From Candidatus Omnitrophota bacterium (GTDB lineage: Bacteria > Omnitrophota > Gorgyraeia > JAHJTE01): a stretch of 64,000 nucleotides of DNA. The position numbers and the translations under genes are program-made. The stretch lies in the NCBI GenBank assembly GCA_018830005.1, contig JAHJTE010000001.1, positions 129,332 through 193,331 of the forward strand, given 5' to 3'. The notes under the pieces are model-generated. The model worked only from the letters and a program-made list of their open reading frames with translations. It ran no database searches and had not been told where the DNA came from. Positions 1,521 to 54,638 of the stretch are shown here, piece by piece (within the stretch, counting starts at the first letter, position 1; each line of letters starts with the position of its first letter).

Positions 1521-2039
1521 ATGATTAAGTTCTTTAATTTTCTAAAGAATATCTTATTTGGTATTTGTGTTTTATTAGCTTTATTTTTTGCCTTCAATGA
1601 GCTGTACTTCCTAGATAGAGTCGCTTTTGTTTCACCACTGGCTAAAGATATAGAGCTGGTTATAAGAGATGATTCTTATGGCAATGGCCACTTTGGAGCA
1701 CGTCGTAAGGGTGGGCTGAAGCATAGAGGTATTGATTTTAGCGCTTCTGTCGGTACCCCAGTCTGCGCTGCAAGGAGCGGATGGGTTATTGGAGCGAGGA
1801 CATCCCGCAGTCTGGGTAAATATGTTGAGATTTACCATAAAGGCGGTTTTATTAGCCTTTACGGACATCTTGATAGTATCGAGGTAAACATGTTAGAGCG
1901 CGTTAGGCAGGGCGAGGTTATCGGTAGTGTAGGCAAAACCGGAAATGCAAATTACAAAGGAATGAAGGCGCATCTACACTTTTCGCTTATGAAGGATAAC
2001 AAGTTTCAGGACCCCGTCCAATTTTTGCCAAGTTTTTAA
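1521..2039 (+). CDS. M23-family metallopeptidase (small, membrane anchored)
   Basis: HxxxD and HxH motifs (GLKHRGIDF, AHLHFSL), YVEIYHKGGFISLYGHL, N-terminal TM. Confidence 0.7.
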   Translation: MIKFFNFLKNILFGICVLLALFFAFNELYFLDRVAFVSPLAKDIELVIRDDSYGNGHFGARRKGGLKHRGIDFSASVGTPVCAARSGWVIGARTSRSLGKYVEIYHKGGFISLYGHLDSIEVNMLERVRQGEVIGSVGKTGNANYKGMKAHLHFSLMKDNKFQDPVQFLPSF

Positions 2040-2075: not shown

Positions 2076-4469
2076 ATGTCAGTTAACATGCGCGAAAAAG
2101 AAAAAAAGACCAATCCAGAGATATTGTTTATATTCCCAGGATTCCAGGATAACGCTCTATTATCTTTTACCCTTGATTATAATTTAGGCAGCGGCTATAT
2201 ATTAGCCTATCTAAAAAAGAAAGGCATTAGGGCCAAGCAGTTTATCCACAGAGATCCCATTACTTTAAATGAGTTGGCTGATAAGATATTGGACCAGGCT
2301 GGGCAAATAGTCGGCTTCACTTGTCTTGATATAAATTATTATTTTGTTAAACTTATTTCACAGCTATTAAAAAAAAGAAATCCCAAATTAACTATTATAG
2401 CTGGCGGACCAACAGCTACTTTTTCTGATAAATTAATCATGCAGGATAATTCAGCTATAGACATATGCGTGCGGGCCGAAGCAGAGCAGAGTGCATATGA
2501 ACTGGTTAAGCGTCTAAGAACGAGTCAGGATATATCTGATATCCAGGGAATAACCTATCGTATAAAATCTAAACTCATGCGTAGCCCAGATAGACCTCCA
2601 ATAAGAGGCGATAATAAAGATGCAGGGCTAGATATCTTTCCCTCGCCTTATTTGGAGAATATCTTGGTCCCTGATGGTTGTATTGGAGTCTTGAGTTCTC
2701 GGGGATGTGTATTTAAATGTGTATACTGTAATTTCTCTGCAATGTCTGGATGGAGAATCAGTTATCACTCCGTAGATAGAGTAGTTTCTGAATTAAAGAT
2801 GATAAGTAACTGGCTTGAAAATAAAGACATACAGGCAAGGGCAAGAACAATAAGGATTATGGATGATGCATTTTCTCTAGATGTCGGGAGGGCGAAGCAG
2901 GTTTGTCGCAGGATTATTGAGGAAAAAATCCATCTGCCATTGGGGACTATGACGCGAGCAGATAGAGTGGATAAAGAACTACTTCACCTTATGTATAGGG
3001 CAGGATTTAAGGATATAGGTTTTGGATTAGAAAGTACTTCGCCCAGAGTATTACGTATCATAAAAAAGGTGAGGACAAACTTAAATAATGAGGATAACTT
3101 TCTTCCAGAAAAAAGATTCGTATCAAAACTTAAAGAAAATGTGAAAATAGCGAAAGAAATTGGATTAACGCCAAAAGTCAATATAATAATGGGCTTACCA
3201 GGCTCAAGCATTAAAGATGACAGAGAAACAGTGAGATTTGTTAGGCAGTTAGAACTCCCAGATTGTAGTTATAACTATTTGAGAATTTTTCAGGGAACAG
3301 AATTATCTAAGACATATAAAGATCATGGCTTAGAAATAATACGACCTTTAACGCGCCTTCCACTTCAGACCCAATATACATATGATGAGCGCAAGATGCC
3401 ACACATTAAGAATCACGACCAGTCTATAATTGAGATTAACACAGGGGAAGAGCTGAGCAGATTGTTGACTGGTACATATAGCAACACTTGCAAAGGGGCT
3501 TATCCTGACCTCCTGATGAGAGAAAATTATCTAGATTCAAAGACTCTGCACTGGTTAAGAAATTATGCAGAGATTGCTCCAGCTATAGGTTTCCTGACCA
3601 GCTATGCTGAAGATAAAGTTTTTTATCGACTTATGAAAAAAATTATTTCTGCAGGTTTGCCTATCTCAAATATTTATTTATTCTCTTTGCTTAATAATGA
3701 TGGCATAAATCCAGCTGATTTAAATCCTATATCCGGAAGATATAAAGTAACCTTTGCAAGTGAGATACTATCTAATAAAACTAAGCGGTTCCTAAATTTA
3801 GGCCTATTTAAATTTATCCCTTTTGGGAGCTATCGCAATAATCATTCAGCTTCCAAAGGCAGTAATGTTACTGATAAGTTGATTTTTAACCTATCTACTC
3901 CTAAGGATATAGAGAGTCTTATAGATTTAGCTTCCTTTTCTGATAATCTAATTTTAAAAGGTGACATGGCCAAATCTGATTGCTATTTTCTGGATGAATG
4001 TAGATTCTCTGACGAAGAGTGTCCTGCTTTAAGTTTTCGACGGGCCATAATAAATAGGGACAATTCGATTATTCCTTGTTTTAATGCTAAGCCGATAGCA
4101 AAGGTTGGTCAGGAACCAAAGACCATAGCCAGGAACATGAACATGCTATCGTCTAACTTGAAGAATAAGAGAGGTTGCAATAGTTGTCTAGCGAAAGATT
4201 CATGTCCCAAATGTCTCTTTCCTTATCCTTTGAGTGATAGAGAGTATTGTCGCTTAATACGCAATAGCCATTCAAAGATAAATATGATGTTTAAATTCTT
4301 TAGTGCTTTAAGGCGGCTGAGATTTGATTACAATGAGATAGAACCAAGATCAAATTTTAATAGGATGAAGGTTCAAATTGATAATGAACTGCTGATTACT
4401 ATAGGCAGGAGAAAATACCTATATAATAGCCATGTTGATAAGTTACATCGGCTAGAGAGAAGAGCCTAA
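2076..4469 (+). CDS. B12-binding-domain radical SAM protein with ~330-aa Cys-rich C-terminal extension (SPASM-like CxxCx5CxxC)
   Basis: N-terminal cobalamin-binding Rossmann-like region (IIAGGPTATF). CxxxCxxC radical SAM motif RGCVFKCVYCNF. C-terminal CNSCLAKDSCPKC plus further Cys residues. Confidence 0.75.
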   Translation: MSVNMREKEKKTNPEILFIFPGFQDNALLSFTLDYNLGSGYILAYLKKKGIRAKQFIHRDPITLNELADKILDQAGQIVGFTCLDINYYFVKLISQLLKKRNPKLTIIAGGPTATFSDKLIMQDNSAIDICVRAEAEQSAYELVKRLRTSQDISDIQGITYRIKSKLMRSPDRPPIRGDNKDAGLDIFPSPYLENILVPDGCIGVLSSRGCVFKCVYCNFSAMSGWRISYHSVDRVVSELKMISNWLENKDIQARARTIRIMDDAFSLDVGRAKQVCRRIIEEKIHLPLGTMTRADRVDKELLHLMYRAGFKDIGFGLESTSPRVLRIIKKVRTNLNNEDNFLPEKRFVSKLKENVKIAKEIGLTPKVNIIMGLPGSSIKDDRETVRFVRQLELPDCSYNYLRIFQGTELSKTYKDHGLEIIRPLTRLPLQTQYTYDERKMPHIKNHDQSIIEINTGEELSRLLTGTYSNTCKGAYPDLLMRENYLDSKTLHWLRNYAEIAPAIGFLTSYAEDKVFYRLMKKIISAGLPISNIYLFSLLNNDGINPADLNPISGRYKVTFASEILSNKTKRFLNLGLFKFIPFGSYRNNHSASKGSNVTDKLIFNLSTPKDIESLIDLASFSDNLILKGDMAKSDCYFLDECRFSDEECPALSFRRAIINRDNSIIPCFNAKPIAKVGQEPKTIARNMNMLSSNLKNKRGCNSCLAKDSCPKCLFPYPLSDREYCRLIRNSHSKINMMFKFFSALRRLRFDYNEIEPRSNFNRMKVQIDNELLITIGRRKYLYNSHVDKLHRLERRA

Positions 4470-4473
4470 AAAG

Positions 4474-5130
4474 GTGATAACTACTTCGTTTAACAATATT
4501 AAATTAGTCATCTTTGATCTCGATGGCACATTGATAGATGCTTATGAGGCGATCGAGTCCAGTTTTAATTTTACTATGAAAAAATTAGGACTACCCACAA
4601 AAAGTAAGTCAGTAATCAAAAGGGCTGTTGGCTGGGGAGATAAAAAGTTATTATCGCCTTTTGTGCCAAAAAAGGCATTGAATTCTGCCTTAAGGATTTA
4701 CCGGGCACATCATAGGGAGTCACTGCCGAAGAAATCGAGATTATTTTCAGGAGTCAGGAAGTTGCTTGGGAGATTATCTTCGAGGTATCATCTAGCTGTT
4801 GCAAGCAACAGACCGACAAGATTTTCCAAAATCATATTGAAGGCGCTTAATATAAATAAGTACTTTTCTTTTTTGCTCTGCGGGGATAGACTAAAGAGAG
4901 GCAAACCGCACCCAGAGATTCTTCGTAAGATTTTAAGGTATTTTCGTATGCAGCACGATGAAGCAATTTATGTCGGAGATATGGCCATTGATGTCCAGAC
5001 TGCCAATAGTGCAAAAATAAAATCAATTATTGTTACGACTGGTTCAAGCAGTTTGTACGAAATCAAGAGAGAAGCTCCATATCAAATAATATCAAATATA
5101 AAACAACTAGAGAAATTATTGATAACCTAG
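4474..5130 (+). CDS. HAD-superfamily hydrolase (phosphoglycolate phosphatase-like)
   Basis: DxDGTL motif (VIFDLDGTLID); C-terminal GDMAIDVQTA motif of HAD subfamily IA. Confidence 0.7.
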   Translation: MITTSFNNIKLVIFDLDGTLIDAYEAIESSFNFTMKKLGLPTKSKSVIKRAVGWGDKKLLSPFVPKKALNSALRIYRAHHRESLPKKSRLFSGVRKLLGRLSSRYHLAVASNRPTRFSKIILKALNINKYFSFLLCGDRLKRGKPHPEILRKILRYFRMQHDEAIYVGDMAIDVQTANSAKIKSIIVTTGSSSLYEIKREAPYQIISNIKQLEKLLIT

Positions 5131-5164: not shown

Positions 5165-5251
5165 ATGGGTACAGGCAGACGTAAACGTAGGGGCAAGCTT
5201 TCCTGGCGTTCAAAAAGAGCCAACAAAGGCAGGAAACCTTGTCGGGGATAA
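5165..5251 (+). CDS. 28-aa extremely basic peptide (MGTGRRKRRGKLSWRSKRANKGRKPCRG), possible small protein or leader
   Basis: Perfect AAAGGAGG RBS 5-6 nt upstream of the ATG. Its stop TAA overlaps the uppP ATG (ATAATGG). No homology recognised. Confidence 0.2.
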   Translation: MGTGRRKRRGKLSWRSKRANKGRKPCRG

Positions 5252-6048
5252 TGGTTTTTCGTTATGTGCTTTTAGGGGTAATTCAGGGCCTAACTGAATT
5301 TTTGCCTATTAGTAGCTCCGGGCACTTAGTTATATTACACAGATTACTAGACACGGCAGAAGGCGATATTGTCTTTTATATCATAGTACATCTTGGTAGC
5401 CTTTGCGCCATAGTGCTTTTCTGTTGGCCGGAATTAAAGAATATTCTTAGCGCCATACTGAGGCGTACTTATGTTAAGCCAGGGCCCTATCTAAAGGTAG
5501 CTAAATTCTTAATTATTGCCAGTATCTTTACAGCAGTAATTGCCATTAGTTTCGATAATTTTATTGAACGCATGTTTTCTTCGCTTTGGGTAGTCGGAGT
5601 GTCTTTAGTAATTACTGGAGGGGTACTTTTTTTAACAAAGTTTAAGCAGGCTAGCTGTATGCGCCAAAGAGAAGATTTAAAGCTTACTGATGGGGCCTTT
5701 ATCGGTCTTGCCCAAGGCCTATCGCTTGTTCCGGGTCTTTCCCGCAGCGCTATGACGATTAGCTTTTGCATATTTAGAGGTATAGAACCTGTATTGGCAG
5801 TGCGTCTTTCTTTTTTGTTGGCGATTCCGGCAATAATCGGGGCTGGGCTCTATAAGATAAAAGAAATCACCTCTGTCAGTATTGACTTCGGATATTTGTT
5901 AATAGCCTTTATTAGTGCATTTGTTTTTTCTCTTTTGGCTTTAAGAATTTTGCTAGTTTTAGTTTCGAGATTTAAATTTTATCACTTTGCTTATTACTGC
6001 TGGGGGTTATCTGTTTTAATTTTCTTCTTTCTAATAAGGGGAGCTTAA
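5251..6048 (+). CDS. uppP: undecaprenyl-diphosphate phosphatase
   Basis: Signature GLTEFLPISSSGHL near the N-terminus; SRSAMTI motif; ~8 TM segments. Confidence 0.85.
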   Translation: MVFRYVLLGVIQGLTEFLPISSSGHLVILHRLLDTAEGDIVFYIIVHLGSLCAIVLFCWPELKNILSAILRRTYVKPGPYLKVAKFLIIASIFTAVIAISFDNFIERMFSSLWVVGVSLVITGGVLFLTKFKQASCMRQREDLKLTDGAFIGLAQGLSLVPGLSRSAMTISFCIFRGIEPVLAVRLSFLLAIPAIIGAGLYKIKEITSVSIDFGYLLIAFISAFVFSLLALRILLVLVSRFKFYHFAYYCWGLSVLIFFFLIRGA

Positions 6049-11614: not shown

Positions 11615-12787
11615 GTGAACGATATGAAAAGAATATATCTTGATTACGCGGCAACAACGCCTACTGACCCGAAGGTAGTCGAAGCGATGAAGCCATTTTT
11701 CTCTGAGCGCTTTGGCAATCCTTCGAGTTTGCATTCTTTTGGCCAGGAGGCAAAACAGGCGATTGAAGAGGCAAGGAGCACTTTAGCGCAATCTCTAGGC
11801 GCAAAGCCAGAGGAGATTATCTTTACTTCTGGCGGCACTGAATCAGATAATATGGCGCTCTTTGGAGTGGTTGAGGCCAAAAAAGACAAAGGTAATCACA
11901 TTATAGTCTCAGCTATAGAACATCATGCTGTGCATGAGCCGGCAAAGCTTCTGGAAAAACGCGACACCAATGTAACTTATATCCCTGTAGATAAAGGAGG
12001 CCTGGTTAATCCGGAGGATGTTAAGAAGGCAATTAGACCTGAGACTATTTTGATTTCCATAATGCATGCGAATAACGAGATCGGCACTGTCCAACCGATA
12101 TCGGAGATTGGCTCTATTGCTAAGGCCAAAGGCATAACCTTTCATTCAGATGCAGTCCAGACAGTCGGACATATCCCTATTAACGTTGATGAGCTGAATG
12201 TTGATTTGCTTTCACTTTCTGCGCACAAATTCTATGGGCCTAAAGGCGTGGGAGCCTTATATGTTAGGAAAGGCACGCGCATAGGGCGTTTTTTACATGG
12301 GGGCGATCAGGAAAAAGGCAAGCGGTCATCAACTCATAATACTACGGGGATTGTTGGTCTGGGAGCGGCTGTAAGGCTTTGCCAACAGAATTTGGCCAGG
12401 GAAGAAAAAGAACAAATTGCATTAAGAGATAAATTAATTAAAGGCATACAGGATAAAATACCTGATTGTCTATTGAATGGTCATGTTACTAAACGGCTGC
12501 CTAATAATGTAAATTTTTCCTTTAAATATGTTGAAGGCGAATCTATTATCTTGAATCTGGATATGTTAGGTATTGCAGTCTCAACTGGATCTGCCTGTAC
12601 ATCTTCAAATCTTGAGGCCTCTCATGTATTGCTTGCCATTGGCCTGTCCCATGAATTAGCGCATGGCTCTTTGAGATTTACACTCGGACGCTGGACTAAA
12701 GAAGAAGAGATAGACTATTGCCTGGAACAATTATCGCCAGTCATTGAAAAGTTGCGTCAGATGTCACCTCTTTATCCGGGAAAATAA
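11615..12787 (+). CDS. cysteine desulfurase (NifS/IscS class V aminotransferase)
   Basis: IYLDYAATTP N-terminus, SAHKFYGPKGVGALY PLP-lysine region, STGSACTS active-site Cys loop. Confidence 0.9.
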   Translation: MNDMKRIYLDYAATTPTDPKVVEAMKPFFSERFGNPSSLHSFGQEAKQAIEEARSTLAQSLGAKPEEIIFTSGGTESDNMALFGVVEAKKDKGNHIIVSAIEHHAVHEPAKLLEKRDTNVTYIPVDKGGLVNPEDVKKAIRPETILISIMHANNEIGTVQPISEIGSIAKAKGITFHSDAVQTVGHIPINVDELNVDLLSLSAHKFYGPKGVGALYVRKGTRIGRFLHGGDQEKGKRSSTHNTTGIVGLGAAVRLCQQNLAREEKEQIALRDKLIKGIQDKIPDCLLNGHVTKRLPNNVNFSFKYVEGESIILNLDMLGIAVSTGSACTSSNLEASHVLLAIGLSHELAHGSLRFTLGRWTKEEEIDYCLEQLSPVIEKLRQMSPLYPGK

Positions 12788-12796
12788 AGATTGGTT

Positions 12797-13570
12797 TTAG
12801 AGGCGCTTTATTAAATCTTGAGCTATTTTCTTGCCGGATAATAACATCCCGCCGAATACTGGTCCCATTCTTGGGCCGCCAAATACTGCATTAGCAGCCA
12901 TACCGCTTACATATAGACCAGGACATACCTCTTTAGAATTCTCTACTGTCATATCTTCAGCTACCTCTGCCCACATCGAACCTTCACCCACGATTTTGCC
13001 TGTTTTTGTATTTAAGCGTATGCCGGATTTTCTCTCGACAATATGCACGACCTCTGATGCATGGCCTGTAGCATCAACTACATATCTTGCTCGCATGGTA
13101 ATTGGGTCTACATGCAGATTAGCCATTTCTACTGAAGTCCAATTTAATACCAGCCCGCAAATGCTATTTTTCCTTATCATTACATCCTCAACGCTCATGA
13201 GGTTAAATATTTTAGCGCCCGCCTTGACTGTTTTTGAGCAAAAGGTTGAGACCGCCTCGATAGAATCTGCCGTGTAATATCCTTTTTGATAAACCCTAGT
13301 CTTAATCCCAAATTCATCAAGGATTTTCTTTGCCTCATTCTGAATTACTATTTCGTTAAACATTATTCCGCCGCCCCACATGCCGCCGCCAACGGATAAT
13401 TTCCTTTCAAAGATAACCACCTTTTTATTTGCCTTGGCTAAATAATAGGCACAGCACATGCCAGCTGGGCCTGCTCCGGCAATAGCCACGTCTACATCAA
13501 GTGCGGCAATAAGTTTTTTATTATAGGTTTCTATTATTGCCTTGGAAATCGTTATTTCATCCAGTTTCAT
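12797..13570 (-). CDS. thi4: thiamine thiazole synthase, Thi4 family
   Basis: Near end-to-end pattern match to archaeal/bacterial Thi4 ([43 protein letters not shown]). The only minus-strand gene in the window. Confidence 0.85.
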
Positions 13571-13616
13571 CTTACCCCCGTTTTTAAAATCATTTTTTCA
13601 ATTTATTTATATCAAT

Positions 13617-13745
13617 AAAAAACCCTTATGCCGAGCATAAGGGTAATTGCAGAATCTTTCCTCCGCTGGCATTATCCAGATCAGGTTCTTCGGGTAATCT
13701 GCTAACGTAAGCAGAACTCTCAGATCGCTTCACGACCTCCCCATA
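13617..13745 (-). promoter_or_regulatory. TPP (THI-box) riboswitch aptamer with downstream intrinsic terminator, in the thi4 5' leader
   Basis: Minus-strand sequence ...GGGGAGGUCGUGAAGCGAUCUGAGAG...UACCCGAAGAACCUGAUCUGGAUAAUGCCAGCGGAGGAAAG matches the THI-box core (CUGAGA; ACCUGAUCUGGAUAAUGCCAGCG). It is followed by hairpin CCCUUAUG-CUCGG-CAUAAGGG plus UUUUUU at 13643-13617, ~45 nt before the thi4 ATG. Confidence 0.8.
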
Positions 13746-13871
13746 TTTAATTGCAATCTTAGTAAAACATATCAGAGGCTCTTTGTCAAGAATTTTAGAA
13801 CCGGAAAGCTTTTATCTTGCTTTGTTAGGAGTTTAGTCTTAAAATACTTCTGTATCTTTGCTATATATACC

Positions 13872-14855
13872 TTGCTACCTCTGTTAAAAACCATGAACGA
13901 GAAGATTCTAGAACACTTACGTAAATCCGATTCTTATATTTCTGGCGAAGAACTAAGCCATAAATTAAAGATTAGCCGTGCCGCAGTTTGGAAAAATATC
14001 CATACACTTATTGACGAAGGCTATGAGATTGTTGCAGTGCCTCACCTTGGTTACAGGCTGGAAAAGCTCACTCCCAAACTTCTTCCCAGGGAGATTAAGT
14101 ATAATCTTAATACTCAATTTATAGGGAAAAATATTTTTTATTTTGATTCACTTTCTTCCACTATGGATAAAGCAATGCAGCTTACTTTGGATGCTGCGCA
14201 AAATGGCACTGTTGTCATTGCCGAGTCTCAATCTAAAGGAAGAGGCAGACTCGGAAGGTCTTGGATATCTCCCAAGCACAAAGGCATATATTTTTCATTG
14301 ATTTTAATGCCCAAGATAATTCCCCAACAGGCATCAATCCTAACTATTGTAATTGCTGTTTCTGTTGCTGAAGCGATAAAGCAGACCTGTGGATTGGATC
14401 CTACAATAAAATGGCCAAATGACATTTTACTTGGTGATAGGAAATTAGGCGGTATATTGGTAGAGATGAACGCGGAGATGGACATCATTAAATTTGTGAT
14501 AGTAGGCGTAGGTCTAAACGTCAGTCAGTCCAAGACACAGCTTCCTACGGGGGCAACATCTTTAAAAGTAGAAGGCGCTAAGGAAGTAGAAAGGGTCGTG
14601 ATTTTACAAACGATCCTAAAAAGAATTGAGCAAAATTATTTAAAATTTACTAAGGAAGGCTCAAGTTTCATTATCCAGAAGTGGAGAGATTTTACTTCAA
14701 CGCTACATTCGCGAATTAAGGTAATTTGCCAGAAAGAGCATATCGAAGGAGAGGCAGTAGATATCGATTTAGACGGCGGGCTATTAATCAGGAAGGATTC
14801 CGGCTTTGTCGAAAAGGTTATGGCGGGAGATGTTGTTAGATTGAAGAGATTGTAA
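13872..14855 (+). CDS. birA: bifunctional biotin-[acetyl-CoA-carboxylase] ligase / biotin operon repressor
   Basis: N-terminal winged HTH (ISGEELSHKLKISRAAVWKNIHTLIDEGYEI), BPL catalytic motif QSKGRGRLGRSW, C-terminal SH3-like domain. True start may be the ATG at 13893. Confidence 0.85.
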   Translation: MLPLLKTMNEKILEHLRKSDSYISGEELSHKLKISRAAVWKNIHTLIDEGYEIVAVPHLGYRLEKLTPKLLPREIKYNLNTQFIGKNIFYFDSLSSTMDKAMQLTLDAAQNGTVVIAESQSKGRGRLGRSWISPKHKGIYFSLILMPKIIPQQASILTIVIAVSVAEAIKQTCGLDPTIKWPNDILLGDRKLGGILVEMNAEMDIIKFVIVGVGLNVSQSKTQLPTGATSLKVEGAKEVERVVILQTILKRIEQNYLKFTKEGSSFIIQKWRDFTSTLHSRIKVICQKEHIEGEAVDIDLDGGLLIRKDSGFVEKVMAGDVVRLKRL

Positions 14856-14918
14856 ACCTCAAATTAATATTTAGTTGACAGTTGTTTTGACCCTACTATA
14901 ATTGTAGTAGGGTTTTTT
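14849..14918 (+). promoter_or_regulatory. bioB control region: bioO-like BirA operator half-sites, TTGACA-16-TATAAT promoter and a 9-bp inverted repeat/T-tract (birA terminator) overlapping the -10
   Basis: TTGTAAACC at 14849-14857, 15-nt AT-rich spacer, then AGTTGACAG (6/9 match to GGTTTACAA) overlapping -35 TTGACA (14875-14880). -10 TATAAT at 14897-14902 embedded in palindrome ACCCTACTA/TAGTAGGGT followed by TTTTTTG. Confidence 0.5.
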
Positions 14919-14938
14919 GTTAGGCAAAAGAGGTCATT

Positions 14939-15913
14939 ATGCGCAAATTCATAAAGGTCCTGGCAGAGGAGATTATTGGCGGAAAAGACTTAAGTCTTAA
15001 AGAAGCCGAAGACTTAATCTCTCTTAAAGGGTGCGACCTGCCTCTATTATTAGAGGCAGCAGCTAGAGTTTGCCAGCATTTTCGCGCTAATAAAGTAAAT
15101 TTATGCTCTATTACCAATGCCAAAAGCGGCGCCTGTAGCCAAGACTGCAAGTTTTGCGCACAATCTGCCGCTTATAAGACAGACGTGCCTGTTTATCCTC
15201 TAATAGAGCCGCAAGAGATGTTGCGCAGAGCAGGCCTTGCGCATGAGTCTTTTTCTAAGAGATTTTGTTTTGTTACTAGCGGAGAGAGTCTGGGAGAGGA
15301 TGAATTTGATAAAATTTGTGAGGGACTTCACTTAATCAAATCTAGATTTTCCGATTTAAAACTTGATGCCTCTTTAGGATTTTTAACTCAAGGTAGGGCC
15401 AAGAGGTTAAAGCAAACAGGCCTATCCCGCTATAATCACAATCTAGAAACGTCCTCTGATTATTTTCCTAAAATTTGTAGTACGCATACATACCTCAAGC
15501 GAGTTGAGACTGTTCAAGCGGTGAAAGAAGCAGGTCTTGAGGTCTGTTGCGGCGGTATTTTTGGGTTAGGAGAATCTCAACAAGACAGGCTAAAACTCAG
15601 CCTTGCCTTAAGAGACTTAGAGGTTGATTGTATCCCTTTGAATTTCCTCAATCCCATATCTGCTACACCTCTTGGACATCAGAAAAAGCTAACCTACAAA
15701 GAATGTTTAAAGATTATATCTATTTTTCGTCTCGTCCATCCTAGAAGAGAAATAAAGGTCTGCGGCGGAAGAGAGTCTGTTTTAGGTAACAAACAATCAT
15801 TAATATTTAAGGCTGGCGCTGATAGTATTATCTTCGGTGATTATTTGACTACTAAAGGAAATTCCCCCAATCAAGATTTAGAAATGATCAAGGCTGCGGG
15901 GCTATCAATATGA
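14939..15913 (+). CDS. bioB: biotin synthase
   Basis: Radical SAM CxxxCxxC (CSQDCKFCAQS), YNHNLETS motif, auxiliary-cluster cysteines. Confidence 0.9.
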   Translation: MRKFIKVLAEEIIGGKDLSLKEAEDLISLKGCDLPLLLEAAARVCQHFRANKVNLCSITNAKSGACSQDCKFCAQSAAYKTDVPVYPLIEPQEMLRRAGLAHESFSKRFCFVTSGESLGEDEFDKICEGLHLIKSRFSDLKLDASLGFLTQGRAKRLKQTGLSRYNHNLETSSDYFPKICSTHTYLKRVETVQAVKEAGLEVCCGGIFGLGESQQDRLKLSLALRDLEVDCIPLNFLNPISATPLGHQKKLTYKECLKIISIFRLVHPRREIKVCGGRESVLGNKQSLIFKAGADSIIFGDYLTTKGNSPNQDLEMIKAAGLSI

Positions 15914-17085
15914 GTATTGACAGTTTTGTTTCTAGTGTATTAGAGGAAAGAAAGGATCAGGGACTTTTTAGGACCCTAAAGACATTAGAGGGCGCTCAGG
16001 ATAGGATCGTCTCTTTTAATGGCAAGAAGTTAATTAATTTTTGCTCTAATAATTATCTAGGCCTGGCAAATGATCCACGCCTAAAGCAGGCTGCGATTAA
16101 GGCAGTAGAGGCCTTTGGTACAAGCTCTGCTGCTTCAAGGTTGACTTGTGGCAGTTTCCGGTTGCATAAGGAACTTGAGGAAAAAATCGCTAAATTCAAG
16201 CATAGCCTTAGCGCCTTGGTTTTTAACAGTGGTTATGTTGCAAACCTAGGTCTAATCTCAAGCCTTATACAAAAGCACGGGGTAATTTTTTCTGATAGGT
16301 TAAATCATGCCTCTATTGTAGATGCGATTATATTAAGCCGGGCCCATATAGTTCGTTATAATCACAATGACATGAGTCAGCTGCAGGATCTCCTAGAAAA
16401 ACACAAAGATGCAAAACAGAAATTAATTGTTACTGATACGGTATTTAGTATGGATGGTGATTTGGCTGATTTACACAGAATTGTAAATCTAGCAGAAAAA
16501 TACCATGCCTCTGTCATGGTAGATGAGGCTCATGCTACTGGCGTTTTAGGCCCTAATGGTGGAGGTCTGGTGGAAGAGTTAGGCCTCTCGGATAAAATAG
16601 ATATTCAGATGGGGACATTAAGTAAGGCCTTGGGGAGTTTTGGCGCCTTTGTTTGTGCTGATGAAAATCTAGTCCAATATTTAATAAATGCAAGTCGACC
16701 TTTTATTTATACGACAAGTTTGCCAGCAGCAGTTTTAGCTGCAAGTATTAAGGCAATAGAGATTATCCAAAAAGAGCCGCAGCAACGCCAAAGACTTTGG
16801 GGCAATATAAGGTTTATAAAACAAGGCTTAGCCGATATGGGCTTAGGACCCTTGAATAGCTCATCAGCAATTATTCCCATATTAACCAAAGAAAATGAAC
16901 TTACTATGGAATTTAGTCAAAGGTTATTTGATAGAGGTATATTTATTCAGGGTATTAGACCACCCACTGTTCCTAAGGATCAGGCACGATTAAGGCTAAC
17001 TGTTATTGCCAGTCATACTAGGGAAGATTTAGAGCGCGCCTTAGCGGCGATTAAGAAGACGGCAAAAGAACTTAGGCTGATTTAG
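15910..17085 (+). CDS. bioF: 8-amino-7-oxononanoate synthase
   Basis: PLP-dependent alpha-oxoamine synthase pattern (SNNYLGLA, DEAHATG, TLSKALG). Overlapping start in the bio operon. Confidence 0.85.
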   Translation: MSIDSFVSSVLEERKDQGLFRTLKTLEGAQDRIVSFNGKKLINFCSNNYLGLANDPRLKQAAIKAVEAFGTSSAASRLTCGSFRLHKELEEKIAKFKHSLSALVFNSGYVANLGLISSLIQKHGVIFSDRLNHASIVDAIILSRAHIVRYNHNDMSQLQDLLEKHKDAKQKLIVTDTVFSMDGDLADLHRIVNLAEKYHASVMVDEAHATGVLGPNGGGLVEELGLSDKIDIQMGTLSKALGSFGAFVCADENLVQYLINASRPFIYTTSLPAAVLAASIKAIEIIQKEPQQRQRLWGNIRFIKQGLADMGLGPLNSSSAIIPILTKENELTMEFSQRLFDRGIFIQGIRPPTVPKDQARLRLTVIASHTREDLERALAAIKKTAKELRLI

Positions 17086-19876
<2,791 letters not shown>

Positions 19877-19877
<1 letters not shown>

Positions 19878-22172: not shown

Positions 22173-22225
22173 GTAGTCTTTCTAAAATGTTTTAAAAAGG
22201 ATAAGAGTCATATTAGGAGGTAGTG

Positions 22226-25200
22226 ATGAGTATGCAAATAAGGTCAAAACAAAAGAAAATATTTGGTTTCATAACAGCTTCTATTCTTGCCATTTTATTT
22301 CTTCCTTTAACTAATGCTTTCGCCTACACAGAGGCGGAGCTTTGTGTAAATCCAGATAAAGACCACTGCTTTTTTGTTGCTGAAGATGGTAGTGATACTA
22401 CAGGAGATGGCAGTCTCACCAAGCCCTACAGGACTTTAGCTCCTTTGTTCTCTGTTGGTGGAAACTATAGTGCAAAGCTTGATAAGGCAGATTCTCAGCT
22501 AAGGACTGTAGTAATGCGAGCAGGAGATTATCATCATGCTGGTACTGTTTATCTACGTCGTTCCAATGTAGTTTTAAAAAATTGGCCTGGAGAAAGGCCA
22601 AGAGTTTGGCTTGAAGGAGACAACAGTGCAAATACACATAGACTTACCCTAGGAGTGGGTTATTCTGGCTACAGTTGCGAAAATGTAACTGTTGAAGGCC
22701 TAGATATAGAAGGTGGCTATTCTTATGCCTTAAAGATTTATGAAAACACCAAGGATGTAACCATAAGAGGAAATAAAATACATGGCTCAGGATATGATGT
22801 AATAAAGATTGTTGGTTGCGGAGTGAGTGGGAACTTAGATTATGACAACTATTTATGTAATCAGAACGCACTTATTGAAGATAATGAGATTTATGATTCT
22901 GGACTTAAAAGCACTATCGGTGATGAGGGCATTGATGCCATGGGGACCTATAATACAATAGTGCGGCATAATTATTTCCATGATATTCAAGGATCAGGAC
23001 TTTATTTCAAGGGCCATTCTAAAGGTATTATAGTGGAAGAAAACTTTTTCTACAACACTGGAACTGGAGGGCTTGATCCGAATAACGTCAATGATACTTG
23101 GGGCGGATTATGGCTAGGGGATGACTCAATGCTTGCATATATCCCTGAGCCTCCCCACAATTATGAGATTGAAGATAGTATCGCCAGAAATAATATTATT
23201 GCAAATACTCAAGGCGATGCCTTACGAGTGATGTCTTGTAAAAATTGTTCTGTGTATAACAACACAGTTTATAACAAAAACAGAAAAGAATTTCCGCGGG
23301 GCTACTTGACTGATTATTCAGGTTCTTTTTCAATATTCAAGAATGCGAAGAAGTCCATTGATGGCATCTGGGCTGATGAGTTAAGGCTGCGCAATGCCGA
23401 GGTTTATTTTAGGAATAATATCGTAGTGGATTCTATAGAGCAAGGTTATGGAATCCAGTTACCCATAGTTGCGATTAACGGTCCTTTTTATAATGGTAGG
23501 AATTCTGACCATTTAAACATGAGAAATAATATCTACTATCGAAGAGATGGCGACTATCGATTTAGAAATTATAGCAGTGAGGAAGCAGTAACTGGTAGCA
23601 CTAGTATTGATGAGTGGCAACAGGTAAGCGCGTTGGATCAAAATTCAAAGATTGCCTCCAACCCAGGAACGCTTTTGCGAATAATGGCTGACGCAAGCCT
23701 ACCTGAAAATGACCCAAAGAGTTATTTACAGACAATTAATTCTGAAGCACTCACTTTAGACGCTGGTGCATACATTGATTTAAGTGTATCTCCATGGACA
23801 GAGTGGTTTCCGGAAACCTGCAGCGATGGCCAGACGCGAAGCTGTGTTACCACTCATAGCTGCGAAGGCCTACAGACTTGTAGCGGCAGCACTTGGAGTT
23901 CATGTCAGGATATAGTTGGGGATAGCTGTCCAGGTACATGCGTTGACAATGATAATGATGGTTATGGTAAACCTGCCTCATTTGCCTGTCAATTTCCTGA
24001 TTTAGATTGTAATGACAGTAATCCTAATGTCAATCCTGGTCATTTAGAAATCTGTGGCAATGGCGAAGATGATGATTGTCGAAGCGGCGATGAGGCTTGC
24101 AAGCAGTGTGTAACAGGAGATACTGTTTTTGGCCAGATTCATGCAAAAGGATGTATATGTGAAGGAGAACAAAGATATACAGGATATTGTTGTGAAGGTA
24201 ATATATATAATCCGTATACAGCTTGTGGCTATGAAGAATGCAGGCCGAATCAATTCTGTGTGACTAACTCTAACTGTTCGGGAACTTGTGATGCATTGGG
24301 TACGGCTTGTATAGATAATACAGCAGATAGTTGTCCTTCATTCATATTGCAGGATGGCCTGGATGGATATTCAGGAACTAAAGATACTTCTTTGTTGAGC
24401 ACCAAACCTACCAGCGTGTCTGGTTCCTCAGGTGCTCTAGGGCTTTGGACAGAGGGTTCGGCAGAGTATAAATTCGTGATAGAATTTGATATTTCATCGA
24501 TTCCTCAAGGGTCAAAAATAAAAGATTGCATTTTACAGATATATACGACTTCTTCTGAGCTTTCGCGTACTTCGAAAAAAAATATCTCGGCGCGCCGGAT
24601 CTTGAGGCCTTGGGTGGAATCTCAAGTAACTTGGAATAAAGCTAATTCTTCTACATATTGGGCCTTAGCCGGAGCAGATGCAGATGGACTCGATAGGAAT
24701 CTTACGCCTTTAGTTACTCACAATCCTACCAAGCCAGATCTTATTTTATATAGGATGACAGACACATGGGCTAGCTTTAATCTTTTAGAATCAGGTGATA
24801 ACATTGCTGAAAAATGGCTGGATGGGACATACCCTAATTATGGCCTCGTTTTTGAGATAGACACTCTTGATGCACGCGGTATGGGCTTTGCCTCGAAAGA
24901 AAATAGCCTAGGTCAGGAGTTTAAACCCAGACTTATCATAAATCTTGAAGGTCAAGGATCACTGCCTCCACCTCCTCCACCATTAAATCAGCCGCCGGTA
25001 TTAGACTCAATTGGCAATAGATCTATCAATGAAGGAGAAAGCCTTACCTTTAATATTTCAGCCACTGATCCAGATGGTGACACCCTAACTTACTCAGCCT
25101 CTAGTCTGCCCCAAGGAGCTATATTTATTAACCAGGCATTCAGTTGGAGGCCTGATTATGGACAGGCAGGAGAATATCTGGTTACTTTTAGCGTAAGCGA

Positions 25201-27730
25201 TGGTGCGGAAATTGATTCAGAAGATATAACAATAACTGTTAATAAGATAGATAACTCCCCACCAGCCATAACTATTACTTCACCCGGGGATAACGCAATA
25301 GTTTTTGAGAGCCCGATACAAGTGAGCGGTACAGTTAGCGATGCTCTAAGTTCTATAGCTAGTGTTAAGGTCAATGCAGAGGAAGTAGCGCTTTCAAATA
25401 GCAGCTTCTCAGCCTTGGTAGCCTTAGAACTAGGAGAGAATATAATTACTGTTACTGCTTCAGATGCTGCAAGCAATACAGCCGAAGTCTCTATTACTGT
25501 TACACTTGATACAGCGCCCACAGGCGGTATTACATTGACTGCTTCTGCAAGTCCTACTTCTGGCACCGCACCTTTGACTGTTGATTTCCAGGCTCAGGCC
25601 TCAAGTACTGAAGGCGCTATTGTAAGATACGAATGGGACTTGGAGGGCCATAATACATTTCGCATGAAGCAAGTGGTTTCCTCTCCAGATGTAAGTTATA
25701 TATATACTGCTGCTGGTTTATATGTGGCTACAGTCAAGGCGATTGATTCTGCTGGTAACTATGAGACATATTCATTTGCGATTAATGTGAACGCAAATCC
25801 TGATGCTCCAACTGTAGCACTTTCAGCAGATACAACAAGCGCAAGTACGCCTTTAAGGGTAAAATTCACTGCAAATGCTAAGGCCGCAAATACAATATCT
25901 AAATATGAATGGGATTTTGATGGCGACGGTGTATTTGAACTTAATAGTAGTAGATCATCTAAGGTTATCCATACCTATATAGTTGCTGGCGTCTATCAGG
26001 CGCGAATTAAGGTAACGGATAGTAAAGGTCTTTCTGCAGAAGACCAGGTTATAATTGATGCCCGAAGCATAAAAGGAACGCCTGAGTTTTCAATTGTAAC
26101 TGATAGGGTTTCTGGAAAGGTGCCTTTATTGGTTAATTTTACTGTTAACAAGGACAACGATTTTACTGCCTTAAAATATGAATGGGATTTTGATGGAGAT
26201 AAAGTAGTAGATTTGGTATCCAATAGTCCAGAAGGAGCATTCACTTATCGCAATGCTGGCACCTTTGATGTTGTTCTTAAGATTATCACTGATAAATCCA
26301 TCGCAGGCTTAGGATATAAACAGATAAAGATTAAAGGGCCTGAAAAAGACTCAGATGAAAGCGGTTCAACTGTCTTAAGCTCATTGTCTCTATCTCAGGC
26401 TACAGGCATTGCCCCTTTGCTGGTAACATTTGCAAATGCCAGTCAGAATTCAATAGAGAGCCTCTATGATTTTGACGGCGATGGCAGTTTTGATTTAAGT
26501 AGTAAGGCAGCCGAATTTAAGACGTACCTCTATAAGAATCCTGGGCTTTATACCCCATTATTAAGGGTATTGGGAACAGGTGGTGATGTAAGCTTTGCCA
26601 GTAGGATTATCTGGATAAATGATGCTGTTGCCAAGCCAATAATGACAGAACCTTCTAATGGCAAGACTCTAGCTGGAGATTCTATAGGGCTTGTTGCTGA
26701 TGCTCCTGTTGGCATAGATATCTTGAAATTAAGTTTCGAGTTTAAGGCATATAACGAGACTACTTGGCAGGAGGTGTCTAACTCCTTAACCGAATTTCCT
26801 TACAATCTAAAATGGGATGTTTCTGGTCTAGCGGATTCTAAGGAATACAATATTCGTGCCAAGGTAATTGACGCAGGAGGCGGAGAATACATATCTGATG
26901 CAATAACTATAACCTTGGATAATAATGACTCTAATCCTGATATAAGAGAGACAACAGCAAATGCACAGGGTGAATATACTAAGGAGGTCAAAATAAACAA
27001 AGAGGAAAATTACACAATTAGCCTCTGGGATGGTACTGTAATTATTGTTCCCCAGGGAGCTTTAGGTGCTGAAGATAAGCTAATCATGAATATCGCTGAT
27101 CCGGCATTAGTGCCTAATAAACTTGAAGGTCAAGACTTAGCAGATGCCAGACAGTATAAGAAATTTAGCCTTGAAAGCGGCAGATACCTTTTTGATAAAG
27201 ACCTTACACTAGTAATCCCTTACCCTGATCTTAATAATGATGGCATTGTGGACGGCACCTCTATTAATGTAGAGACGCTTAGTATCTATCAATTTAATGA
27301 AGCCAGCAATGTTTGGCAGAAGGTTAACAGTACGATTGACCTAATAGAGAAGACTGTGCGCGTAAAGATAAATCATTTTAGCTTGTTTGGTTTAGGAGGC
27401 CTTGGTGAGGACGGAGATGATGTTTCTTCTGATTCAGATTCACCTATTCTGCCTGTTTCTACTTCTGAAGGTGGCGGAGGAGGTAGTTGTTTTATTGCCA
27501 CAGCCGCCTTTGGCAGTCCGCTAGAAGAAGAAGTTAAGACACTTTCTGAATTCAGAGATAGATACTTGTTGAGCAATAGAGCTGGTGAGATGTTTGTAAG
27601 ATTCTATTATCAACATTCTCCGAAATTAGCAGAGTTTATTAAAGATAAGGAATCTTTAAAGGTAGCAATTAGATTATTCTTGAAACCACTTGTTAATCTA
27701 AGTAAATTTTTGCTAGAGGCAGGAGGATAG
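22226..27730 (+). CDS. giant (1835 aa) secreted multidomain protein: signal peptide, right-handed parallel beta-helix (pectate-lyase-like), Cys-rich MopE-like putative metal-binding repeats, cadherin/Ig-like domain, >=5 PKD repeats, Gly-rich linker and C-terminal [10 protein letters not shown] box domain
   Basis: Signal peptide [33 protein letters not shown]. Beta-helix N..I.N repeats ([18 protein letters not shown]). [25 protein letters not shown]-type repeats. [46 protein letters not shown]. Repeated [12 protein letters not shown] units. Tail [36 protein letters not shown]... Confidence 0.8.
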
Positions 27731-28971: not shown

Positions 28972-30579
28972 ATGAAAAAGACAAGGTTATTTATATTAGT
29001 ATGTTTGATATGCATTTCTTGGACAGCTCGACTATCTGCTATTGATTTGACTCTAGACGTAAAAACAGATAGCCAAGTGGCAGGGCAGACGCAACCTTAC
29101 GGCTATGTCAAGATAGAAGGTAGAAAGCTTTTAGTAGATTTTGATAAAGACGGAATATATGAACTATATTTTATTAAGGGTGTTGGCTATAGTCCTTATC
29201 CAATAGGCAGACAGCCTACTGAGTGGAATAAACCCAATATATTTAATGATAGCCAAATTCTTCATCGTGATTTTTCCCTGTTACAAGCAATGAATTGTAA
29301 CACTATTCGTATCTGGAAAGGAGATGATACTGAAGAAGATAATGGCAAATTTCCTTGTAAGATCACCAGGACTTTTAATCCAGAAAACCCAGGAACGCTT
29401 GATATTGCAGATGAATACGGTATCAAGGTCATAGCGGGATTTTGGATCCAGACGCAACAGCCGCGCTGTGAGGATGGGAAGGTAATATATGATGAATTAG
29501 CTTTTCTTACTGAGGGCAGCCTTGAACAAGATGATTTGTTATCTAGATTCCGAGCCTATGTTAATAAATTTAAATGGGATCCTGCTATTCTCTTTTGGGC
29601 TATCGGTAACGAAAACAACTTTCATATACCGCCGGATAGATTGCATGAGTGGTATGCGTTCGTAGATAAGATGGCTGAGATTGCTCATGAGGTTGAAGAT
29701 CCTGATAACTTTGGTTATTATCATCCAGTTGCAGTTGTTAACGGAGATATCATGTTTGATAAAGATACTGTTGTTATTGGAAATTATGATTTTGGAACGA
29801 CAGATGCACAGATGAGCCATTTGGATATTTGGGGAGCGAACGTCTATAGAGGGGATTCTTTTGGTGAGCTGTTCTCTGATTTTGCAGCTAACTCAGATAA
29901 ACCAATTTGGATAGCTGAATACGGCGTAGATGCCTGGCATGTTGATGACTGGCAGGATGAGCAGCCTGGGATTGGTTTTGAAAATCAGGATATCCAAGCT
30001 CAATGGGTTGGTAAGCTTTGGGATGAGATTGCTGCTAATTCATCAGTTGCCAAGTGTGGGATAAGCATAGGAGCAACAGTTATGGAATATTCAGATGAGT
30101 GGTGGAAGCCGATTGAATGGGAAGAATCAGGTATCCATGATTACGATGGCGTTGGCCCTACTGATACTGACTGTCCTCCTGATCCTCTTGATGATGAAGA
30201 AAGAATTGATTGGTGGCCTGCTAGTCCGGATAATTTTTTTAATTCTGAATGGTGGGGGATTATGGCTATTAGCCGTCCATACCCTGATGATGGGGGGCCA
30301 GATATTATGACACCTCGTTTAGTGTATTACACTTTACAAGATAAATTTGCAGATGAACAACCACATCTTTTCCTCTGCGGTGATGCTAATGCAGATTGTA
30401 GCCTCAATATAGGAGATCCTGTTTATTTGATTAATTATAGTTTTAAGGGCGGCCCAGCACCTGAACCTCTGGAGGCAGGCGATGCCAATGGAGACGGTAG
30501 TGTTAATATAGGTGATGCTGTTTATCTGCTTCACTACATCTTCAAGGGCGGCCCAGCACCGGTGTGCGTAGGAAACTAA
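28972..30579 (+). CDS. secreted clan GH-A glycoside hydrolase (TIM-barrel, GH5/GH2-like) with C-terminal tandem type-I dockerin repeats
   Basis: Signal peptide; AIGNENN (acid/base NEN) and WIAEYGVD (nucleophile Glu) motifs. C-terminus CGDANADCSLNIGDPVYLINYSFKGG...DANGDGSVNIGDAVYLLHYIFKGG gives two Ca-binding dockerin segments. Confidence 0.65.
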   Translation: MKKTRLFILVCLICISWTARLSAIDLTLDVKTDSQVAGQTQPYGYVKIEGRKLLVDFDKDGIYELYFIKGVGYSPYPIGRQPTEWNKPNIFNDSQILHRDFSLLQAMNCNTIRIWKGDDTEEDNGKFPCKITRTFNPENPGTLDIADEYGIKVIAGFWIQTQQPRCEDGKVIYDELAFLTEGSLEQDDLLSRFRAYVNKFKWDPAILFWAIGNENNFHIPPDRLHEWYAFVDKMAEIAHEVEDPDNFGYYHPVAVVNGDIMFDKDTVVIGNYDFGTTDAQMSHLDIWGANVYRGDSFGELFSDFAANSDKPIWIAEYGVDAWHVDDWQDEQPGIGFENQDIQAQWVGKLWDEIAANSSVAKCGISIGATVMEYSDEWWKPIEWEESGIHDYDGVGPTDTDCPPDPLDDEERIDWWPASPDNFFNSEWWGIMAISRPYPDDGGPDIMTPRLVYYTLQDKFADEQPHLFLCGDANADCSLNIGDPVYLINYSFKGGPAPEPLEAGDANGDGSVNIGDAVYLLHYIFKGGPAPVCVGN

Positions 30580-49309: not shown

Positions 49310-49341
49310 GCTCGAGCTTAAGCTCGGCTTAATATAATTTT

Positions 49342-51574: not shown

Positions 51575-51578
51575 TAAG

Positions 51579-53346: not shown

Positions 53347-53384
53347 TATTGAGCGATGCGCATGGAGTTAAAAAAGAGGTAGCC

Positions 53385-54602: not shown

Positions 54603-54638
54603 AATAATAAGGAGCAAGTAATTTAATATAGAGATAGT

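Follow-up and report, generated by a model that had tools for sequence, protein, structure and literature searches.

An Omnitrophota class-B radical SAM enzyme with a divergent SPASM-like domain, probably acting on a peptide and encoded apart from partner genes

What does a radical SAM enzyme do that joins a cobalamin (B12)-binding domain to a cysteine-rich C-terminal region, and can its substrate be read from the genes around it? The question is raised by a gene at positions 2076..4469 of the forward strand of a 64,000-nt stretch of DNA (the window; contig JAHJTE010000001.1, positions 129,332 to 193,331) from a Candidatus Omnitrophota bacterium. The open reading frame (ORF) starts with ATG and encodes 797 amino acids (aa) plus stop. 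A preliminary description of the sequence had recognized the two N-terminal domains of a class-B enzyme and a SPASM-like C-terminal domain, and had deduced from the neighbouring genes a cell-envelope substrate rather than a peptide made on the ribosome and modified after translation (RiPP). On balance we favour the view that the protein is a cobalamin-dependent, probably C-methylating, peptide-modifying enzyme of a rare subfamily with a SPASM-type domain, and that the window copy is an orphan.

The window protein belongs to the class-B architecture by all sequence and fold criteria applied. Along the gene (2076..4469, +) the B12-binding domain is followed by the radical SAM core, a middle domain, the SPASM-like domain and a tail made of a helix and a beta-sheet. 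The cobalamin-binding Rossmann domain (2181..2504, +; residues 36-143) matches Pfam PF02310 with 42.4 bits at a cutoff of 32.1, and the radical SAM core (2694..3242, +; residues 207-389) matches PF04055 with 58.1 bits at a cutoff of 29.5; this part of the preliminary description is therefore confirmed. Within the core the cysteines of the CxxxCxxC motif (C211/C215/C218; nt 2706-2729, +) are conserved to 100 % across the family alignments, and a FGLES motif is found at residues 316-320. In the B12-binding domain the alignment columns show G110-G111-P112, D129 and E137 to be invariant in the family.

The AlphaFold2 (AF2) model of the whole protein (mean pLDDT 89.9, pTM 0.92) was compared with solved structures. 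In Foldseek its first ~450 residues match CysS (9n1b-d), TokK (7kdx), TsrM (6wte), MgmA (9ccb), OxsB (5ul2) and AprD4 (6fd2) with E 1e-14 to 1e-21, for example 7.7e-21 for CysS, 2e-19 for TokK and 2e-18 for TsrM. Likewise, the full-length family profile A1 recovers from the Protein Data Bank (PDB) sequences cobalamin/radical SAM cores only (E 1e-20 to 1e-28, residues ~20-450). The best NCBIfam match is ApyD (NF050148) with 115 bits against an equivalog cutoff of 750, limited to the core (residues 45-421). PhpK (96 bits, cutoff 600), HpnJ (95, cutoff 578) and BchE (87, cutoff 481) also match the core only, so that the window protein reaches the cutoff of none of these equivalogs. The fold alone is no proof of cobalamin use, because AprD4, a close neighbour in sequence and structure, is deposited as a radical SAM 1,2-diol dehydratase rather than as a methylase. 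AprD4 is not known to use cobalamin.

Residues 430-797 have zero Pfam matches at E <= 1, DUF4070 included, both within the whole protein and as a fragment. The middle alpha/beta domain (3363..3875, +; residues ~430-600) has no NCBIfam match either; its alternating strands and helices are modelled confidently by AF2, and W493 and P529 are conserved in the family. The eight-cysteine SPASM-like domain follows (3993..4271, +; residues 640-732), and the Cys-rich domain modelled in isolation reaches a pLDDT of 88.1. According to the AF2 secondary structure, the last segment (4272..4466, +) consists of a long helix, up to residue ~752, and a four-stranded beta tail (763-793). This tail is kept within the Omnitrophota clade, where Y781 is nearly invariant (clade alignment A3). 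It was also considered whether a PqqD-type RiPP recognition element (RRE) had been truncated to its beta-sheet half to give the tail (residues 760-797); the strand register is plausible by eye, but the comparison is non-significant by hmmsearch and hhalign (E 0.17, probability 0.35 %) and the candidate was rejected. A profile search with A3 retrieved mostly an unrelated Gemmatimonadaceae family of B12-binding radical SAM enzymes.

Database searches yielded ~100 full-length relatives (700-880 aa; coverage ~87 % or more) from Omnitrophota, Acidobacteriota, Chloroflexota, Eremiobacterota, Altiarchaeales and one Bradyrhizobium isolate. The closest non-identical relative, P0002, shares just 53 % identity with the window protein. 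Conservation was measured in alignments of 100 (MAFFT) and 85 family members, down to 25 % identity. The cysteine-rich pattern is C642-x6-C649-x18-C668 ... C701-x2-C704-x5-C710-x2-C713-x11-C725, and it includes CNSCLAKDSCPKC (C701-x2-C704-x5-C710-x2-C713), the Cx2Cx5Cx2C motif to which the preliminary description had drawn attention. In the 100-member MAFFT alignment C668 and C713 are invariant and C642, C649, C701, C704, C710 and C725 are conserved to 90-95 %, whereas the cysteines outside the motif are poorly conserved (C472 1 %, C636 24 %, C202 1 %). Because of this difference the eight-cysteine pattern is not due to chance. The family consensus of the region reads D-x-C-R-W-x4-C-P-A ... 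P-C-x-x-G-x-x-I-G-x-V-G ... R-G-C-x-x-C-x5-C-S-K-C-L-F-P-x-P-x4-E-Y-C. Besides the Cx2Cx5Cx2C motif, four more cysteines had been counted in the C-terminal part; there are six (472, 636, 642, 649, 668, 725), but the conserved ones are exactly four (642, 649, 668, 725). The alternative named at that time, a common DUF4070 extension with unconserved cysteines, is contradicted twice, by the missing DUF4070 match and by the 90-100 % conservation.

An exhaustive search with the domain profile as a hidden Markov model (HMM) found 562 cluster representatives (clusters at 50 % identity) at E <= 1e-3, 484 of them at E <= 1e-10. In the best 150 matches the Cys-rich domain lies near residues 530-790 of full-length proteins. 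Because the profile search ends at 562 representatives, the Cys-rich domain can be regarded as a sharply bounded family of its own. One protein (P0121, 1745 aa) carries two copies of the domain. A longer type of B12-binding radical SAM enzyme (about 1050-1116 aa; L010 6789-9965 and P0085-P0087) aligns to about half of the window protein; the 1058-aa enzyme of this type in L010 adjoins a family member and is unmatched by the Cys-rich-domain profile (one example examined).

Is this domain a SPASM domain? The published pattern is Cx2-4Cx5Cx2-3Cx14-18C plus remote cysteines, with eight cysteines in anSME (PMC5682303), and the window domain fits it, apart from the last spacing, with three upstream cysteines, the Cx2Cx5Cx2C motif and one further cysteine. 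The C-terminal fragment of the window protein matches the SPASM end of TIGR04148 (model positions 307-408 of 411), an NCBIfam model for radical SAM/SPASM peptide maturases, with E 5.9e-5. Among the C-terminal fragments of 29 family members, the generic SPASM model TIGR04085 is matched by 16, TIGR04148 by nine and the Pfam SPASM model PF13186 by five, while other Cys-rich models are matched by only 1-2 fragments each. The matches are in register: positions 1-75 of TIGR04085 cover ~C649 to C713 in nine of the ten fragments whose coordinates were read. The family C-terminal alignment (A2) was also compared by hhalign with A4, a small alignment around an anSME-like maturase from a relative's gene cluster (lead sequence 208 bits to TIGR03942, full length). 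This comparison gave E 3.3e-5 and a probability of 72 %, with the eight cysteines paired column for column. In the AF2 model short strands (~656-666), a helix (681-699), the Cys-rich loop and a helix from residue 721 follow each other, an order compatible with the SPASM topology. Searching all ORFs of the relatives' loci with the A2 HMM matched only family members and not the canonical radical SAM/SPASM proteins encoded in the same clusters; therefore library HMMs and the profile-profile comparison were needed to see the link. The SPASM-like assignment of the preliminary description is thus upheld in a qualified form: the sequence comparisons argue, with moderate strength, for a divergent SPASM-type domain whose homology is of moderate significance and whose scores stay outside curated-threshold membership.

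A further model, NF041823 ('daptide biosynthesis RiPP recognition protein'), matches 10 of the 29 family fragments in the equivalent of residues ~635-755 (best E 1.1e-5). Coordinates were read for four of these matches, and in them the SPASM-like region is covered by model positions ~132-240; the model may contain a related Cys-rich module.

For the substrate the genes beside the relatives are informative, and they probably point to a peptide of the RiPP type; an envelope substrate finds no support in them. Context was readable for the five closest relatives, P0002, P0005, P0006, P0008 and P0010 (loci L008, L010, L006, L004 and L007), and a PqqD-type recognition element is encoded beside all five. 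With a custom PqqD HMM, PqqD was detected near a family gene in nine of the loci with adequate flanks, and a subset of the family members has a fused C-terminal PqqD domain. In the L004 locus P0008 is accompanied by three PqqD proteins of 91-93 aa, three fusions of a family 2 glycosyltransferase (GT2) with PqqD, a radical SAM/SPASM protein, an HprK-related kinase, methyltransferases, an ABC exporter and three short ORFs. P0002 (L008) has PqqD upstream and, immediately downstream, a 47-aa ORF followed by a GT2-PqqD fusion and a GT2-TPR protein. P0005 (L010) lies with PqqD, a 45-aa ORF, the 1058-aa B12-binding radical SAM enzyme, a methyltransferase, GT2-PqqD, a further B12-binding radical SAM enzyme and more PqqD. 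Next to P0006 (L006) a glycosyltransferase-PqqD protein, an HprK-related kinase, a fusion of an S24 peptidase with a PF14907 nucleotidyltransferase and an ABC exporter are encoded, and next to P0010 (L007) an anSME-like maturase, PqqD, a 47-aa ORF, PF14907 and an HprK-related kinase. Loci of more distant members are similar in kind: the Chloroflexota contig L003 harbours two family members, three B12-binding radical SAM enzymes of 570 aa, PqqD, a ScmC/HprK-like protein and two peptides whose cores are rich in Val/Gly/Ala.

The preliminary description had suggested looking for small precursor ORFs near relatives, and at least ten were found beside family genes. They combine a basic leader containing Y/F-x-x-P-x-L-x-K (e.g. 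KEYQKPQLKKY, SYEKPSLIKY, KKYEKPGLTKK, ARYEKPKLARV) with short G/A/S/V/P-rich cores such as GSSGASAG, TVSAVGAA and Val/Gly repeats. These ORFs are located in L004 (12633-12773, 12796-12927, 14206-14319), L007 (4887-5030), L008 (6428-6571), L010 (6557-6694), L021 (9719-9883), L018 (12143-12289, -) and L003 (3878-4084, 7895-8056). Together they give the impression of a candidate family of RiPP precursors, of which we found no description. In actinobacterial lasso peptides YxxPxL is the leader motif to which the RRE binds (PMC6784204), and the nearest NCBIfam models for the stand-alone PqqD proteins are those of lasso-type PqqD chaperones. Because PqqD/RRE proteins, glycosyltransferase-PqqD fusions, HprK-related kinases and leader-bearing ORFs recur, the family appears to be embedded in RiPP-type clusters.

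Tandem arrays were observed in two places. In L002 (1-12247; Chloroflexota JAMCWD010000001.1, same genome as L003) six family paralogues follow each other, and in L022 (1979-12616; Thermoanaerobaculia DATEIO010000679.1) four, all with the Cys-rich domain. Neither PqqD nor a precursor was found in these arrays within the stretch read.

How does the window copy compare with its relatives? Its neighbours are as given in the preliminary description: an unannotated ORF of 149 aa with a hydrophobic N-terminus (1063-1512; 139 aa in the contig annotation), an M23 peptidase (1521..2039, +; PF01551), a HAD phosphatase that begins 5 nt past the stop codon (4474..5130, +; PF13419) and UppP/BacA (5239-6048; Pfam). 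The 10 kb upstream contain SecA, Lnt, an unannotated 513-aa ORF, a lipid A acyltransferase-like gene, an 86-aa ORF, a CitMHS permease and DUF502; downstream, HAD and UppP are followed by MazG-like, YqeY, FeoB, FeoA/DtxR, a PP-loop protein, Rrf2, NifU and NifS. Ten further window ORFs belong by Pfam to biotin synthesis, MnmA, type II/IV secretion and large surface proteins. The immediate neighbours (M23, HAD etc.) occur beside none of the relatives whose loci were read, and therefore they are no guide to the substrate. An antisense ORF within the radical SAM gene (2987-3268, -) is not a gene; it matches antisense ORFs of relatives in BLAST because the coding sequence on the opposite strand is conserved.

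No PqqD, HprK-like kinase, PF14907, glycosyltransferase-PqqD or precursor was found in the 64-kb window by phmmer with all partner proteins from the five relatives' loci, by PqqD and precursor HMMs or by a regular expression for the leader. HMM and motif scans of the small window ORFs gave nothing credible as a leader-bearing precursor, and the Pfam annotation of the 10 kb further upstream contains no RiPP partners. In a promoter and terminator scan sites were no more numerous than in shuffled controls, and no terminator-like site was found between the radical SAM and HAD genes. Judged by these searches the window copy is an orphan, with no partner genes over ~10 kb on the upstream and ~60 kb on the downstream side. 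The substrate would then be encoded elsewhere in the genome, or the enzyme would have been retained or repurposed after loss of the cluster.

A loose synteny with the loci of two Omnitrophota relatives bears on the origin of this situation. The nifS-birA-bioB-bioF-bioC-bioDA block, next in line after the P0002 cluster, is found here at a distance of 7 kb downstream of the window gene (window 11615-19877 versus L008 9801-16353), and the MFS-rnfCDGEAB block found beside P0010 lies 44 kb downstream (window 48047-55436 versus L007 10482-16673). The nifS/birA/bio orthologues are 38-70 % identical, compared with 53 % between the radical SAM protein and P0002. The MFS-rnf genes are mostly 55-62 % identical (one 33 %), compared with 45 % to P0010. 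The data are consistent with vertical inheritance of the enzyme and loss or relocation of its partner genes.

Some other window genes were noted in passing. The BioD-BioA fusion within the biotin block (17841-19877; 678 aa, dethiobiotin synthase AAA_26/CbiA plus class III aminotransferase) has a counterpart of 758 aa in L008. An ORF of 1835 aa (22223-27730) with right-handed beta-helix, Ig-like (He_PIG, Big_9), glucodextranase-B and PKD domains probably encodes a large surface protein. In a 535-aa ORF (28972-30579) a GH2-like TIM barrel is joined by a type I dockerin at the C-terminus, a domain that may be unusual for this lineage.

If the peptide-modifying reading is correct, the enzyme would bind cobalamin together with three [4Fe-4S] clusters, one that cleaves SAM and two auxiliary ones. 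At the C211/C215/C218 cluster SAM would be cleaved reductively to give a 5'-deoxyadenosyl radical, and this radical would strip a short, leader-tethered ribosomal peptide of a hydrogen at an unactivated carbon. Most likely a methyl group would then pass from methylcobalamin to the peptide carbon (C-methylation), and methylcobalamin would be regenerated from a second SAM after one-electron reduction. The auxiliary clusters could serve as electron conduit and/or substrate anchor. In the relatives a PqqD-type element, either separate or fused, would bind the YxxPxL-type leader and so deliver the peptide. Methylation is favoured on account of the enzymes characterised among the nearest relatives, the aliphatic nature of the cores and the paralogues arranged in tandem: the next NCBIfam matches after ApyD and the structural neighbours are mostly methyltransferases, and arrays of 4-6 tandem paralogues together with Val/Gly/Ala-rich cores suggest position-specific or iterative alkylation.

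Several results weigh against this interpretation, both for the domain and for the chemistry. The last cysteine spacing is x11 instead of x14-18, and ~200 residues of a separate alpha/beta domain (430-630) lie between the barrel and the Cys-rich domain. Of the models named in the preliminary description PF02310 and PF04055 are found and DUF4070 is absent, while TIGR04085 is matched by the 16 of 29 relatives below threshold only (best 26.1 vs 27 bits); the window protein itself matches neither TIGR04085 nor PF13186, for which the best E among the relatives is 3e-4. The A2 profile stays within the ~560 representatives without reaching the wider SPASM superfamily and recovers zero solved SPASM proteins from the PDB sequences. 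Its matches there are non-significant and zinc-ribbon-like (S27e, DnaI), and Foldseek with the isolated domain model found nothing significant in the PDB. One could conclude from this that the region is a structural zinc module, or a fold unrelated to SPASM that resembles it through cysteine composition. We consider this very improbable in view of the one-to-one alignment of the eight cysteines with an anSME-like SPASM domain, the preference of the family fragments for SPASM models over other Cys-rich models, their common register and the modelled element order, which fits the SPASM topology; moreover, the domain is part of a radical SAM enzyme. Regarding the chemistry, class-B enzymes also form C-C, C-S and C-P bonds and contract rings (PMC10635010; PMC12257519), and SPASM domains typically belong to maturases that cross-link or oxidise (PMC5682303), so that methylation is no more than the most probable option. 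The enzyme might introduce a peptide cross-link or another non-methylating modification (thioether, C-C or C-O bond, epimerisation, dehydrogenation), with cobalamin absent or not acting as methyl donor. C-C cross-links by PbsB and thioethers by ThnL, both known B12-binding radical SAM enzymes, are precedents, as is the close neighbour AprD4, the diol dehydratase. However, many candidate cores (GSSGASAG, TVSAVGAA, Val/Gly repeats) lack cross-linkable cysteines or aromatic residues, several clusters already possess separate canonical radical SAM/SPASM maturases, and ApyD, the nearest characterised peptide-modifying relative, is a methyltransferase. This makes a non-methylating role rather unlikely, though a serious competitor to C-methylation.

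The remaining points against the favoured reading concern the window copy, which has no visible substrate in ~70 kb and departs from the consensus at 7 of 97 highly conserved columns, compared with 0-5 in the rest of the clade. It is conceivable that the enzyme modifies a cell-envelope molecule (a lipid, a polyprenyl-linked intermediate or an envelope protein), as the preliminary description held. The gene stands between those of the M23 peptidase and the HAD phosphatase, in the same direction and with no terminator-like site, and UppP comes next; Lnt, the lipid A acyltransferase-like gene and DUF502 are located further upstream. In addition, several B12-binding radical SAM enzymes act on lipids, weak partial NCBIfam matches to HpnJ, HpnR and a 'ladder' lipid enzyme exist, and RiPP partners are missing. 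But no such envelope neighbour recurs beside the relatives, where RiPP-type partners accompany 5/5 of the closest. The lipid-enzyme scores lie far under the cutoffs (95 vs 578, 40 vs 650 and 66 vs 360 bits) and reflect the shared core only, and the surroundings resemble a compact run of unrelated housekeeping genes (SecA, FeoB, YqeY, NifS, biotin operon). An envelope substrate is therefore quite improbable, and we do not follow the preliminary description in this point. The same lack of partner genes could mean that the window copy has lost its function along with its RiPP cluster and is decaying into a pseudogene. As the most divergent clade member at conserved positions, and with a location upstream of nifS-birA-bio that roughly corresponds to that of the intact P0002 cluster, it would suit this scenario. 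Yet the 797-codon frame is intact, and every catalytic residue is kept (three radical SAM cysteines, eight auxiliary cysteines, the invariant residues of the B12 domain). At the seven deviating columns the exchanges (G>A, R>S, S>N, Y>C, H>Y, W>F, G>A) are conservative, their number does not leave the range seen across the family (median 4), and the identical 797-aa protein is present on two independent assemblies. Decay of the gene thus seems improbable, and we retain the reading of an orphan peptide-modifying enzyme.

B12-binding and SPASM/twitch enzymes are separate subgroups in SFLD (5 and 17) and in RadicalSAM.org (PMC9477430), and a methods review treats them as two subsets (PMC8950095). 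In the open-access full-text literature we found no description of a protein that combines B12 and SPASM, although one may exist elsewhere, and nothing relevant on ScmC or on RiPPs of Omnitrophota. A bolder reading, which we put forward tentatively as possible rather than expected, is that the family forms an undescribed four-cofactor class of radical SAM enzymes (cobalamin, SAM cluster, two SPASM-type clusters). It would define a new class of glycosylated and alkylated RiPPs with lasso-like YxxPxL/PqqD recognition, spread across uncultivated phyla (Omnitrophota, Chloroflexota, Acidobacteriota and methanogen-related archaea). The auxiliary clusters could then act as an internal electron wire for re-reducing cob(II)alamin, and the window orphan could be an enzyme recruited to a non-RiPP substrate. 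Known class-B methylases need external reductants for the re-reduction of cob(II)alamin. An enzyme with cobalamin and three iron-sulfur clusters would offer a natural system for electron delivery to cobalamin in radical methylation and would also show what SPASM clusters contribute beyond cross-linking chemistry. The family furthermore marks unexplored peptide natural-product clusters, with PqqD proteins, glycosyltransferase-PqqD fusions, HprK-like kinases and short hydrophobic cores, in phyla without cultured producers. The window gene is a well-preserved, isolated member of it, the substrate of which should not be inferred from its neighbours.

Comparing the family with known systems, the clusters of the relatives resemble Haft-type cassettes (SynChlorMet with ScmC/D/E/F, GeoRSP) in their PqqD chaperones (lasso_PqqD, geo_PqqD, ScmD), their HprK-related kinases A/B or ScmC-like proteins, their PF14907 nucleotidyltransferases and their radical SAM/SPASM proteins similar to ScmE, ScmF and GeoRSP; with the lasso recognition module they share the YxxPxL leaders. 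They differ in that all matches stay under the equivalog cutoffs and that neither a lasso cyclase nor a leader protease was seen. GT2-PqqD fusions and the enzyme with both B12 and SPASM-type domains lie outside the described cassettes, and the window has none of these partners. SPASM maturases (anSME, AlbA, PqqE, MftC, the TIGR04148 family) have the eight cysteines in the same order (3 + Cx2Cx5Cx2C + 1) and, like the relatives of the window protein, are associated with a PqqD-type RRE and a leader peptide. However, canonical SPASM enzymes lack a B12 domain and carry SPASM directly after the barrel, and the window family is set apart from SPASM maturases by scores under the curated cutoffs, no match to a solved structure and the final x11 spacing.

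With the solved class-B enzymes and AprD4 the window protein shares the N-terminal Rossmann B12 domain followed by the partial TIM-barrel radical SAM core, but it is only 13-20 % identical to these enzymes and aligns with them along the N-terminal ~450 residues alone. The DUF4070 extension common in B12-binding radical SAM enzymes is replaced here by the ~200-aa alpha/beta domain, the eight-Cys SPASM-like domain and the beta tail. None of the solved class-B enzymes compared is known to have a SPASM-type domain or two auxiliary clusters. Among peptide-modifying enzymes that have been characterised, the nearest is ApyD, an RRE-containing B12-binding radical SAM enzyme that C-beta-methylates Tyr of a RiPP precursor in aminopyruvatide biosynthesis (PMC10635010), beside which PoyB/PoyC-type and TIGR03975 RiPP C-methyltransferases are related examples. 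The match to ApyD ends before the Cys-rich region, and in the clade of the window protein the RRE is a separate protein and not fused; common to both are the cobalamin and radical SAM architecture and, as far as the relatives' clusters indicate, a peptide substrate recognised via an RRE.

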